Below, piece by piece: positions 21,569 to 30,354 of a stretch of DNA of 36,079 nt (position 1 is its first letter; each line of letters starts with the position of its first letter). Under the pieces are notes generated by a model. It saw only the letters and a program-made list of their open reading frames with translations, was not told where the DNA came from and did no database searches. The translations under genes were made by a program, and so were the position numbers. Source of the DNA: a virus (lineage: Duplodnaviria > Heunggongvirae > Uroviricota > Caudoviricetes); the IMG/VR virus record IMGVR_UViG_2690316109_000010; one strand, written 5' to 3'.

Positions 21569-22036
21569 TCATCGAAGGCATTGCGTCCCGATGTATTCCT
21601 GAAGCGTTCTCAGTGCTGTTTGGTCGCGGATAATTCCGTCCCGGATACCGAGAACGTTTCGTCCAGCAACTGGAGAGAGTTCGACGGTGGCATCATTGCC
21701 CATGCCGGAGGCGCTGGAGGTTTCGGCTGAGGATGGCACAGGGCATTTTCCTTTGACGAGCACCCGACCACCATTATCAAGCTTGCGCCGAAGAGCATCA
21801 TTTTCAGCTTTCGCATCAGCTAACTCCTTCGTGTATTTAGCATCGAGTGCATCAGCAGAACGCTGGCGCTGCTGCATGTCAGTAATGGTGGCGGTCGCCT
21901 GCTTCAGCTCACTGACTTTTTTATCTCGCTGTTCTTTGTAGGCGATGGCGTTATCACGGTAATGATTGACCGCCCACGACAGGCAGACGATGATGCAGAT
22001 AACCAGAGCGGAGATAATCGCGGTTACTCTGCTCAT
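21569..22036 (-). CDS. Rz: Spanin inner-membrane subunit Rz
   Basis: [30 protein letters not shown]... matches lambda Rz; the ATG at 22036 overlaps the R stop as ATGA. Confidence 0.9.
21610..21816 (-). CDS. Rz1: Spanin outer-membrane lipoprotein Rz1, embedded in Rz in another frame
   Basis: 68 aa, [21 protein letters not shown]... with lipobox and a Pro-rich segment (PKPPAPPAW), fully inside Rz in the +1 frame. Confidence 0.8.
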
Positions 22037-22530
22037 TGTTGCCCCCACAAACAGACTTCACGCTCAATCTCACGACGAGTCATCAGGCCTTTCCATTGCT
22101 TACCGCCAGCGTATATCCAGCGACGTAGCTGGTCACATGCGCCTTTGATATCGCCCTGGTTTATTTTGCGAAGAAGCGTCGATGTTCTGAAATTGCCAGC
22201 ACCCACGTTGTAGACGAACGAGTAAAGAGCGCCGCGCGTTGTTTCCGGTATATCGACTTTGATGTACGGGTTAATTTGTCTGGCAACCGTGGCAAGGTCT
22301 TTATTCAGGAGGGCTTTGCATTCTGCTTTGGTATACGTTTTACCGAGCATGATGTCTTTTCCTGTATGCCCGTGACATACAGTCCATACACCAACAATAT
22401 CTTTGTATGGTATGTAGCTGACACCTTCCAGACCATCGTTACCACTTGGGCCAGTGATTAACACTGATGCTATAGCAATTGCTCCTCCACCAATAGCAGC
22501 AGCAACTGCTTTTCGTAATGATGGAGGCAT
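22033..22530 (-). CDS. R: SAR endolysin (phage 21 R-like lysozyme)
   Basis: 165 aa; N-terminal Gly/Ala-rich signal-arrest-release segment [30 protein letters not shown] followed by a lysozyme domain; matches the phage 21 endolysin as I recall it. Confidence 0.9.
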
Positions 22531-22745
22531 TATTCACCTCTCGCAGCCTTGCGCTTATCTTCTTTAATCTTGAAATAAAGGTTTGTCAGGTACGTCAGCA
22601 GGCCAAATACCAGACTACCCAGCACACCTATTGCCGCCCACTGTGAGGGCGTGACTTTATCGAGCAGCTGTAAAAACCAGTAGCCAGCACTGCCTGCGGA
22701 GGTGCCGTAGGCAATGCCTGTTGAAATTTTGTCCATGGATTTCAT
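22530..22745 (-). CDS. S: Pinholin (S21-like) with dual-start motif
   Basis: [31 protein letters not shown]...[14 protein letters not shown] from the ATG at 22745, with a second ATG at 22736 (Met1-Lys-Ser-Met4, the antiholin/holin pair). A further in-frame ATG at 22775 would give 81 aa. Confidence 0.85.
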
Positions 22746-22844
22746 AGCCTCACCTCCGCACGGAACGGATGGCATAGTTATTATGTGTAGGCTTCCAGAT
22801 ACATCAATCAGAGCCTTAATTGATATATATGCTGGAGACGATGC

Positions 22845-23971: not shown

Positions 23972-24337
23972 TTTTCCTCACATATGTCATATAGTAAAGG
24001 ATTATATATACCGTTGTTTTGGACGCTCAAACAGCGAATCAGATCAAATAAAACGCACATTTGTTAACATTTACACAAAGTCTGCGTGGGATATTCTGAA
24101 AGAATATCCATAATGTGGAGAGAATCTATTGAAGTGCATGGTGCCGGGGGCCTCCCGGTGAATTCAGTACCAGCACCTGAATCCACGATTATCCCATATA
24201 CCTACTCGCTGATTGCCCCTCCGCACAGGGGGATTCACCATGCCAGTTTCTTTTAACAAACTCCCCGCAAACCAGAGAACAGTCAACCGCCTGAATTGTG
24301 AAGTATTTAAAAATTTCTCCCGCTAACTGATACCCGG

Positions 24338-24341
24338 CTAA
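24338..24341. repeat. IS5 target site duplication CTAA (left)
   Basis: CTAA immediately precedes the left inverted repeat and is repeated at 25538-25541. Confidence 0.85.
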
Positions 24342-25537
<1,196 letters not shown>

Positions 25538-25541
25538 CTAA
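25538..25541. repeat. IS5 target site duplication CTAA (right)
   Basis: CTAA immediately follows the right inverted repeat. Confidence 0.85.
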
Positions 25542-26245: not shown

Positions 26246-26349
26246 TGAATACCGATAATGGACCGCCATCGGGGACCCGCCCCCCCCCGCACCAACAACC
26301 CTGTTATCGTGTCGTCTGCTCTTCCTGATAAGCTCATGGCGGTTTGTGA

Positions 26350-26425
26350 TGGTGGCCCTTGCTGGATTTGAACCAGCGACCTGGCGATTATGAGTCGCTC
26401 GCTCTCACCACTGAGCTAAAGGACC
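26350..26425 (-). tRNA. tRNA with CAU anticodon (ileX/ileZ-like tRNA-Ile2, or Met)
   Basis: The reverse complement GGTCCTTTAGCTCAGTGGTGAGAGC...CTCATAA...GCTGGTTCAAATCCAGCAAGGGCCACCA folds as a cloverleaf with anticodon loop CTCATAA; closely resembles E. coli ileX as I recall it. Confidence 0.8.
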
Positions 26426-26461
26426 GGGAGCAGAATAATAACGGTCCGTAATTAATTCCGC

Positions 26462-26488
26462 AATAAAAAACCCGCTCGGTGGCGGGTT
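26462..26488 (-). terminator. Candidate late terminator tR' downstream of Q
   Basis: aacccgc-caccga-gcgggtt hairpin on the minus strand followed by UUUUUUAUU. Confidence 0.6.
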
Positions 26489-26535
26489 GTAGAAACTCTT
26501 CTAACGTCAGGTATAAAAAGCCCATCTTTATGACG

Positions 26536-26563
26536 AATTTACCACAGATTCCGGAAAAATCAA
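26536..26563 (-). promoter_or_regulatory. Candidate late promoter pR'
   Basis: Minus-strand TTGATT (-35), 16-nt spacer, TAAATT (-10), immediately after the Q stop and about 60 nt upstream of the terminator. Confidence 0.45.
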
Positions 26564-26568
26564 CCTTG

Positions 26569-27390
26569 TTACCTAGTTACCTTTTTTAACTGCCGCTCAG
26601 CCCATGCTTCTTCAATATCAAACCGGGTCACCAGCGCATCATAGAATTTCTTAACTGTTTTTTCCCATGACGCGCGTGTTATCTGGTTTGTCACCTCGCA
26701 TATAGCATTAAATGCCTCCGTTGATGGTAGTCTTTCATAGCCACGACCACCACAACGCTGGCAGTCTCTGATAACAGGCATACCACGTTTTACCGACTCT
26801 TCACGGTGAATGGCGACACCACGCCCACGGCAATCCTTACAGACGGTGGAAACCTCACCCTTTCCGCCACACTCCGGACAGGCAACTTTTACCACCTCCC
26901 TGACTTTTTTCCATTCTTCCCAGTAAGACGGATACACACCTTTCGTACACTTTGCCCATACCGGCGGCTTACCATCCGGATACTGGACCTTGTTTGTAAA
27001 AACTACGCTTTCAATAAATTTTTCCCCATAGCAACAAGGGCACTGCTTTTTACTCGCTGCGCTGCGGGCATAATCCTCAAAAGCGTACGAAGCCATAATG
27101 CGCATCACTAACGGTTTTATTTCTGCCGGAAGTTTTCTCAACGCCGCCACACGATCGCACCGACTGAGTGCATAATCTGCCAGTAATTCTGTTGCCCGCG
27201 CCCTGTCATTCATACTGATGCCCATTTTCCCCAGGAACGCAGAAAACCCCATCTCAGCCCGATTCTGTGTCATGCCCTGCGCGGCCATCACATCAGTGAT
27301 ACTCAGCGCATCTTTTGACGTTGAGGCCGATGCATCGGTCAGGCAAGGGGATTTTGGGGAGTAGTATTTCGGTAAATCTTCCAGTTTCAT
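26569..27390 (-). CDS. Putative late antiterminator Q (QuuQ-like) with DnaJ-type zinc-finger repeats
   Basis: 273 aa with CPCCYGEK, CPECGGKG, CKDCRGRG and CQRCGGRG (CxxCxGxG) repeats; assigned as Q by position between rusA and pR'/tRNAs/lysis genes. Confidence 0.5.
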   Translation of the reverse strand: MKLEDLPKYYSPKSPCLTDASASTSKDALSITDVMAAQGMTQNRAEMGFSAFLGKMGISMNDRARATELLADYALSRCDRVAALRKLPAEIKPLVMRIMASYAFEDYARSAASKKQCPCCYGEKFIESVVFTNKVQYPDGKPPVWAKCTKGVYPSYWEEWKKVREVVKVACPECGGKGEVSTVCKDCRGRGVAIHREESVKRGMPVIRDCQRCGGRGYERLPSTEAFNAICEVTNQITRASWEKTVKKFYDALVTRFDIEEAWAERQLKKVTR

Positions 27391-29636: not shown

Positions 29637-29792
29637 TTACTCCTCAGGTTCGTAAGCTGTGAAGACAGCGACCTCCGTCTGGCCGGTTCGGATTCGTACC
29701 TCGCAGAGGTCTTTCCTCGTTACCAGTGCCGTCACTATGACGGTTAAACAGATGACGATCAGGGCGATTAACATCGCCTTTTGCTGCTTCAT
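29637..29792 (-). CDS. hok: Hok-family type I toxin (HokD/RelF-like)
   Basis: 51 aa, MKQQKAMLIALIVICLTVIVTALVTRKDLCEVRIRTGQTEVAVFTAYEPEE, a Hok-family membrane toxin; ATG at 29792 after AGGAG; the frame is open upstream to 29849 (mok-like leader). Confidence 0.85.
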   Translation of the reverse strand: MKQQKAMLIALIVICLTVIVTALVTRKDLCEVRIRTGQTEVAVFTAYEPEE

Positions 29793-30354
29793 AGCCTGCT
29801 TCTCCTTGCCTTTCGGCACGTAAGAGGCTAACCTACATGTGTCTAGCATGAAATTGGCCTCAGGTTAATGTTAAGCGTCTTGCCGGACGCGTAATGTTAA
29901 CTGGGGCTTTTCTCTATCTGCCTTTGGTGTTCATGCCTGAGGCAGATAGCCTCAAGCACCCGCAGCAATTCTACTTAACTCACGTCACCTCGCCAATATA
30001 AAATCAATCAGAAAGGCGATCCGTAAGAACAACAGCAAGGCAATAAATTGCCATTACAGCCGCAATAGCTAGCGCACATTTGAGAACCAGCACGACAACC
30101 TCCTGTATTGGACGTACACCAGTCCTGATGAATATGAGGCTGTCTCGTCAGTGATTCAATACAACTATTGGGTATAGTTTCTCTGATTTTTTCTGTGGAA
30201 ATGGGGCTCAACCACTAGTCACCACCAGCACTTCTTTTAATACGCAAAGTCCGACACAAGCTAACCTTCTAGTCCGCTTTGAGCGAGGAGCGGAAGTTTA
30301 TAGACATTTCTTGCACTGCATTGTCTAATCAATTAGGAGCTGGTAACGTGCCCT

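Follow-up and report, generated by a model that had tools for sequence, protein, structure and literature searches.

The window analysed here, that is, the whole 36,079-nucleotide stretch of IMG/VR record IMGVR_UViG_2690316109_000010, covers the right arm together with the late region of a lambdoid E. coli prophage, read on the minus strand. Along that strand, the genes come in the order hok/sok, rem, a DUF968 gene, rusA, the antiterminator gene Q, two tRNA genes, an IS5 element, two genes with TolA C-terminal domains, holin, endolysin and Rz, followed by terminase, portal, head and tail genes that reach about position 230 according to Pfam matches and the open reading frame (ORF) map. The closest record is phage mEp460_ev081, which is 98.4% identical over 551 bases comprising the end of Q, the promoter-terminator region and both tRNAs, and many E. 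coli chromosomes are also among the closest records. A 701-bp stretch spanning this region (Table 1) is present at a coverage of at least 80% in 1243 of 5426 complete E. coli genomes, where annotation covers Q and the tRNAs only.

In an Rfam scan of the window, matches that reached the gathering threshold of their family were limited to the tRNAs, sok and STnc100. The sok antisense RNA (29787-29961, minus strand; 118.7 bits) lies in a hokD-type toxin context upstream of rem, comparable to that of the Qin prophage of K-12. The small RNA STnc100 gave a strong match at 24082-24272 on the minus strand (110 bits vs a gathering score of 47), placed within the late transcription unit between IS5 and the first TolA-like gene. 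The two small cargo genes with TolA C-terminal domains (PF06519; 23543-23971 and 22997-23392, both on the minus strand) stand just upstream of the holin gene, and their products could interfere with Tol-dependent entry of phages or colicins. In addition, a complete IS5 occupies 24342-25537 on the plus strand. It is inserted into the late operon after the tRNAs and before the cargo and lysis genes, and it has the opposite orientation. It contains a 326-aa transposase ORF and imperfect terminal inverted repeats (89%; GGAAGGTGCGAACAAG / CTTATTCGCACCTTCC), and the CTAA that flanks it on both sides (24338-24341 and 25538-25541) represents a target duplication suggesting that the insertion is recent.

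Table 1. Coordinates of the features in and around the region between Q and the tRNA genes (position 1 is the first letter of the window)
Feature	Position	Strand	Basis
Q antiterminator, 273 aa, lambda Q family	26569..27390	-	Pfam PF03589, 183 bits, E = 8e-55
Insertion of ~69 aa in Q relative to lambda Q (residues 114-182)	26842-27048	-	alignment; base/start of zinc-ribbon arm
Q stop codon TAA	26571-26569	-	sequence
-35 hexamer TTGATT of candidate late promoter PR'	26558..26563	-	sequence; 5 nt after Q stop
Spacer TTTCCGGAATCTGTGG, 16 nt	26557-26542	-	sequence
Spacer motif TTTCCGGAATCT, candidate Q-binding element (QBE) of this Q subfamily	26546..26557	-	conservation
Extended -10: TG (26544-26543), g, TAAATT (26541-26536)	26536..26544	-	sequence
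Pause element AAAGAT (predicted +1 to +6) and discriminator-like triplet GGG (+7 to +9)	26521..26529	-	alignment with lambda
Predicted short leader transcript, about 64-68 nt	26462..26529	-	predicted +1 and terminator position
tR' intrinsic terminator	26462..26488	-	hairpin 26488-26469, U-tract to about 26462
Candidate tRNA promoter TTGCGG-17-TATTAT	26435..26463	-	overlaps end of tR' U-tract
tRNA(CAT), annotated as tRNA-Ile (ileZ-type) in relatives	26425-26350	-	
tRNA-Arg(TCT)	26245-26169	-	
701-bp stretch: 3' part of Q, PR'-tR' cassette, first tRNA	26300-27000		
Lysis cassette: holin, endolysin, Rz	21569..22775	-	Pfam matches and ORF map

The protein that the first-pass annotation had taken for a putative Q is a genuine member of the lambda Q family. 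Besides its Pfam match, it aligns over its entire length with the solved structure of lambda Q, PDB 7UBM (E = 1.9e-40), with residues 1-113 corresponding to residues 1-113 of the structure and residues 183-273 to residues 117-207. PF03589 is the Q-lambda family of the Ebright laboratory, which is separate from the Q21 and Q82 families (PMC9388147). The insertion between the two aligned parts carries extra CxxC and CxxCxGxG motifs, for which a DnaJ zinc-finger match stayed below threshold (28.8 bits vs 32.7). This long-arm form of Q, of about 270 aa, is common in Enterobacterales.

Directly downstream of Q and pointing toward the late genes lies a candidate sigma-70 promoter with the conserved arrangement TTGATT-16-TGgTAAATT. 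Recomputed coordinates place the hexamer pair reported in the first-pass annotation, TTGATT-16 nt-TAAATT, right after the Q stop on the minus strand, as described there. The -10 hexamer is identical to that of lambda PR', and relatives show TTGATT, TTTACT, TTGCAA or TTGACT at the -35 position. By themselves, the hexamers are not above chance. The pair matches the consensus at 8 of 12 positions, and since the threshold of the promoter scanner is 9/12, no call was made there; sites of equal quality number 121 in the window vs 115.8 +/- 10.9 in shuffles, and 4 vs 8.7 expected when the TG motif is required. The hexamers were thus dropped as evidence, and the case rests on homology.

This homology becomes apparent downstream of the -10 hexamer, where the DNA aligns position for position with the PR' regions of lambda and P22. 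Anchored on the -10, the window reads TAAATT-CGTCAT-AAAGAT-GGG and lambda reads TAAATT-TGACTC-AACGAT-GGG, so that AAAGAT-GGG, an element absent from the first-pass annotation, stands 6 nt past the hexamer as does AACGAT-GGG in lambda. The lambda AACGAT, at +1 to +6, is a -10-like element that is re-bound by sigma-70 and causes the +16 pause, and the GGG at +7 to +9 is a discriminator-like triplet that strengthens this pause (PMC4005639, PMC5001585). A count of the composite TAAATT-N5-7-AANGATGGG gave this cassette as the single match in the window, and 100 shuffles gave none. Alignment with the lambda +1 predicts a start at the A at 26529, which agrees with the start at about 26528 proposed earlier.

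The terminator tR' is formed by the hairpin AACCCGC/CACCGA/GCGGGTT, with a stem of 7 bp (five of them G-C; -10.6 kcal/mol), and TTTTATTG following it gives six consecutive T when the last two T of the 3' arm are included. The stem starts 47 nt past the -10 and the U-tract ends about 74 nt past it, so that the earlier description of a 7-bp stem with a U-tract about 60 nt later is a fair one. Terminator-like sites number 9 in 3 kb vs 3.3 expected, and tR' is one of the nine. The leader at 26462-26529 has a predicted fold of -17 kcal/mol (z = -1.7) and would be the counterpart of the lambda 6S RNA and of the P22 leader; given the position of the P22 terminator at +31 to +59, a short leader is normal for the Q-lambda family.

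In gathering and permissive Rfam scans of the leader, no family reached threshold. A Trp_leader (RF00513) match covered exactly 26462-26568 with 27.1 bits against a gathering score of 41 (E = 7e-4), and an isrK (RF01394) match had 14.7 bits against 50; both identities were rejected as sub-threshold, the two alignments resting on the terminator hairpin. A leader peptide was likewise rejected, the 45-codon ORF at 26525-26388 having no ribosome-binding site and extending across the terminator and into the tRNA, and its ATG at +5 belonging to the GATGGG that is conserved in the pause element.

By using the Q protein alone as the entry point, 14 phage loci and about 60 species-level enterobacterial loci were reached. 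Almost all of them share one layout, in which Q is followed by a -35 and a -10 hexamer, 5-7 nt, a pause element of the form AA[CTA][GA][AG]T-GG[GA], and, at about +35 to +70, a hairpin and its U-tract, the terminators differing in sequence. Clear exceptions are Fels-1, mEp013 and two further loci (L167 and L194). In Fels-1 (L013), Q is followed by a promoter-like TTGACT-17-TATGCT with no pause element at the usual spacing, while in mEp013 (L014) further ORFs come directly after the Q homologue without an obvious PR'. A pattern scan of IMG/VR recovered 120 contigs with 80 distinct versions of the window's module, among which the terminator sequence varies and its position and stem are kept. A group of loci from the scan of genome contigs (L198-L212) was excluded; in the seven of them that were checked, which come from assemblies labelled Bacillota, Collinsella, Psychrobacter, Pseudomonas, Oceanobacillus, Leeuwenhoekiella and Shewanella, the Q gene is 97-100% identical to that of lambda, which most likely reflects contamination of these assemblies with lambda DNA.

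A closer view of constraint is provided by 25 protein-anchored loci whose spacer starts with TTTCC and whose Q proteins are 49-98% identical to the window Q. Here the spacer, TTTCC(C/G)GAA(T/A)CTGTG, is 80-99% conserved per column, on a par with the hexamers and the pause element, whereas conservation falls to 50-70% in the 5-7 nt that separate the -10 from the pause element and to about 45-60% in the leader past +10. More distant Q subfamilies have quite different spacers, each conserved internally. Ordinary promoter spacers are under no sequence constraint, whereas a cognate Q-binding site should be kept inside a Q subfamily and change from one subfamily to the next, as this spacer does. With its last TG assigned to the extended -10, the spacer leaves TTTCCGGAATCT as the candidate core and likely Q-binding site of this subfamily. 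In lambda, the QBE is placed between the -35 and -10 hexamers. The lambda element forms part of the late promoter and is positioned upstream of the polymerase in its paused state (PMC9388147, PMC6606751). The lambda QBE sequence itself is not conserved in the window spacer.

Taken together, these observations indicate that the segment 26563-26462 on the minus strand is very probably the late regulatory cassette of a Qin/mEp460-like lambdoid E. coli prophage, homologous to the PR'-qut-tR' region of lambda and P22. The lambda-type Q-switch arrangement proposed in the first-pass annotation is supported by the family of its Q, by the alignment with lambda and P22 and by recurrence in about 60 species. 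With lambda, the window has in common a Q from one Pfam family that aligns along its whole length, the -10 TAAATT, the pause element AA(N)GAT-GGG at a distance of 6 nt, an intrinsic terminator ahead of the late genes, and lysis and morphogenesis genes downstream. It differs from lambda in the spacer between the hexamers (16 nt, TTTCCGGAATCTGTGG, vs 17 nt, TATTGAATAAAATTGGG), which means that the Q site must differ, as well as in the cysteine-rich arm insertion of ~69 aa in Q, the length of the leader (about 66 nt vs 194 nt), the distance of the promoter from the Q stop (5 nt vs about 40 nt), the -35-like TTGACT by the pause element (TCGTCA in the window), and position +3 of the pause element (A vs C). 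With P22, it shares the element order gene 23/PR'/qut-like site/t late and a short leader (terminator at +31 to +59; OQ031658), and the annotation of the P22 record OQ031658 names PR', the qut-like site, +1 and tR' in that order. The P22 pause element, AACGAT-GG, aligns with that of the window; in contrast, P22 has a Q (gp23) of the short lambda type, with 207 aa, and a promoter spacer resembling that of lambda. Phages 82 and 21 follow the same logic, in that the polymerase makes a sigma-dependent pause close to the promoter, is loaded with Q and reads through a terminator nearby (PMC5001585, PMC9388147), whereas the Q proteins belong to other families (Q82 and Q21; PF06323 and PF06530), and the phage 82 pause element is shifted downstream by 9 bp, the pause occurring at +25 (PMC5001585).

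By analogy with these systems, a mechanism may be proposed. Sigma-70 RNA polymerase would start constitutively at about 26529 from TTGATT-16-TGgTAAATT, after which sigma region 2 would re-bind AAAGAT (+1 to +6), aided by GGG (+7 to +9), and the polymerase would pause within the first ~16-22 nt. Without Q, transcription would stop at the hairpin and U-tract, yielding a leader RNA of about 66 nt. The Q protein of 273 aa, accumulated after induction, would bind the spacer between the hexamers (candidate TTTCCGGAATCT) and load onto the paused polymerase, making it resistant to terminators. The Q-modified polymerase would then pass tR', the tRNA genes, IS5 and the TolA-like cargo and proceed into the lysis and morphogenesis genes. 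The presence of IS5 within the late operon is a point counted against the cassette reading; late transcription would need to read through it.

The best-surviving alternative, which we nevertheless regard as unlikely, is that the ~66-nt leader acts mainly as a trans-acting small RNA in the lysogen, in the manner of StxS, and that the Q switch is secondary or has been lost in a decaying prophage. This view draws on the fact that constitutive PR' transcripts ending at tR' can become Hfq-binding regulators (PMC7547250) and on the end of the leader, a typical hairpin with a U-tract. The region of Stx phages 933W/Sp5, Q - PR' - tR' (StxS) - ileZ/argN/argO - stx2, shows the same order of Q, short terminated leader, tRNA genes, cargo and lysis genes, and its tRNA module with the upstream TTGC(A/G)G-17-TATTAT is homologous to that of the window at about 87%. 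However, homology to StxS was rejected, because the Stx2 phage locus has a different Q, a 144-aa protein without a match of the window Q, and an unrelated leader of 258 nt; a third tRNA gene (argN) is present there, and the window lacks stx genes and has instead the two TolA-C-terminal-domain genes and IS5. The absence of any Rfam family at threshold, the low conservation of the leader past +10 within the subfamily and the apparently uninterrupted ORFs of Q, the lysis genes and the structural genes also speak against this alternative. Moreover, the small-RNA proposal is compatible with a role in antitermination: given that constitutive PR' leaders can acquire small-RNA functions, an StxS-like role is possible besides it.

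Considerably less probable is the proposal that the hexamers arose by chance and the hairpin merely ends the early-right (Q) operon, with no late promoter at this place. The chance-level count of hexamer sites and the silence of the promoter scanner are in line with it, and a terminator after a gene is commonplace; it leaves unexplained a pause element at the exact lambda spacing in a composite unique in the window, the conservation of the -35, spacer, -10 and pause element in the 25 loci (with Q down to 49% identity) while the flanks vary, and a layout that is family-wide and whose elements are named in the homologous P22 annotation. The idea of a tRNA leader or attenuator, or of a trp-type leader peptide unrelated to Q, is scarcely credible: although a Trp_leader match covers the segment, an ORF opens at +5 and the tRNAs follow directly, the match and the ORF fail on the grounds given above, PR'-tR' follows Q without downstream tRNAs in Stx2_EH1910, SfV and P22, and the tRNA module has a candidate promoter of its own.

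Returning to the late regulatory cassette, the window copy deviates from its relatives at several positions. Across relatives, A2 and T6 of the pause element are kept in almost all sequences and position 3 is C, T or A. A2 and T6, both retained in the AAAGAT of the window, are the counterparts of the -11 and -7 bases that flip out in a -10 element. At +3 (26527), the A of the window is found in one of the 120 IMG/VR contigs, with T in seven and C in the rest, and it recurs across species in Enterobacter soli and in a Klebsiella locus. At +18 (26512), the window has A vs G in most relatives (TATG to TATA), by which the T/G step at +17/+18 that resembles the lambda C16/G17 pause site is lost, and pausing or Q loading could consequently be weaker in this allele. 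In addition, a -35-like site just upstream of the pause element takes the repositioned sigma region 4 in lambda (bioRxiv 10.1101/2022.03.25.485794). At this site lambda has TTGACT, close relatives have TTGCCC or TTGTCC (4/6), and the window has TCGTCA, which agrees with TTGACT at 3/6 positions. The poor TCGTCA counts against particulars of the loading model and leaves the classification of the cassette as a whole untouched; likewise, A3, A18 and TCGTCA lower confidence in full-strength function of the window copy and leave the identity of the elements unchanged.

Two readings go beyond the textbook scheme, and we put them forward jointly as tentative and, on balance, doubtful. First, late leaders of the Q-lambda family may carry a conserved stem-loop at the very start of the RNA, formed by the transcribed pause element (+1 to +10) and a stretch at about +18 to +27. 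Such pairing of the first 4-10 nt is possible in many leaders. Among 65 distinct leaders, 44 have a predicted 5'-paired fold, vs 32% of shuffles (mean z -1.2), and native combinations of 5' and 3' halves reach -5.9 kcal/mol vs -3.9 for chimeras whose halves come from different subfamilies. Several variants of the pause element are accompanied by matching partners (for example AATGA/TCATT, AAGG/TCTT, AACAAT/ATTGTT and AACGG/CCGTT). On the other hand, RNAalifold found no consensus pairs in the ungapped +1 to +30 alignment, as the hairpins vary in length, and fixed-register covariation was not significant (51 of 500 shuffles reach the score; 57.8% vs 56.9% of cells paired), while fixed-register pairing beats all slid registers (34-45%). 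In the window leader itself the 5' fold is essentially lost (-0.5 kcal/mol), because A3 and A18 both hit predicted pairs. The searchable literature yielded no description of such a 5'-end leader hairpin, which is no proof of novelty. This evidence is only suggestive and makes the hairpin a lead rather than a finding; if true, the stem-loop could protect the long late mRNA from 5'-end-dependent decay. Second, Q proteins of the long-arm subfamily, about 270 aa in length and equipped with additional zinc motifs, may recognize a Q site of their own that contains the palindrome TTCCGGAA. The QBE of Q21 is a direct repeat bound by two protomers (PMC9388147).

The switch predicted here is the known late switch of the lambda paradigm, found in a diverged Q subfamily, and no concept is changed by it. 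What is gained is a precise annotation, with predicted start site, pause element, candidate Q site and terminator, for a very common E. coli prophage module. In Stx-converting phages, late-promoter strength and Q type influence toxin output. Relatives of the window Q type are present in some of these phages, in which knowledge of the constrained bases could therefore help to read natural variants.

The first-pass annotation had placed the tRNAs, cargo genes and lysis cassette behind this promoter-terminator arrangement. The lysis genes, as well as the structural genes, do lie downstream on the same strand, and the position of the tRNAs also stands; they are probably not strictly dependent on Q. 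The -10 of the candidate tRNA promoter ends 9 nt upstream of tRNA(CAT), the start being predicted at about 26428, and TTGCAG-17-TATTAT upstream of ileZ in Stx2a_WGPS8 is its counterpart. In the Sp5 Stx2 phage, a transcription start has been mapped between tR' and the tRNAs (PMC7547250). With a conserved candidate promoter of its own, the tRNA module is probably transcribed constitutively and independently of Q, at least in part. The window starts to resemble the tRNA modules of phiP27 and Stx2 phages at about 26465, and this mosaic junction just past the terminator indicates that the PR'-tR' unit travels with Q. Two smaller differences were observed within the tRNA module: the third tRNA (argN) that Stx2 phages have between ileZ and argO is missing from the window, and a run of nine G on the minus strand (26280-26288) lies between the two tRNA genes, a tract whose length varies from one near-identical relative to another, with five G in mEp460 and ten in strain CFSAN064035.
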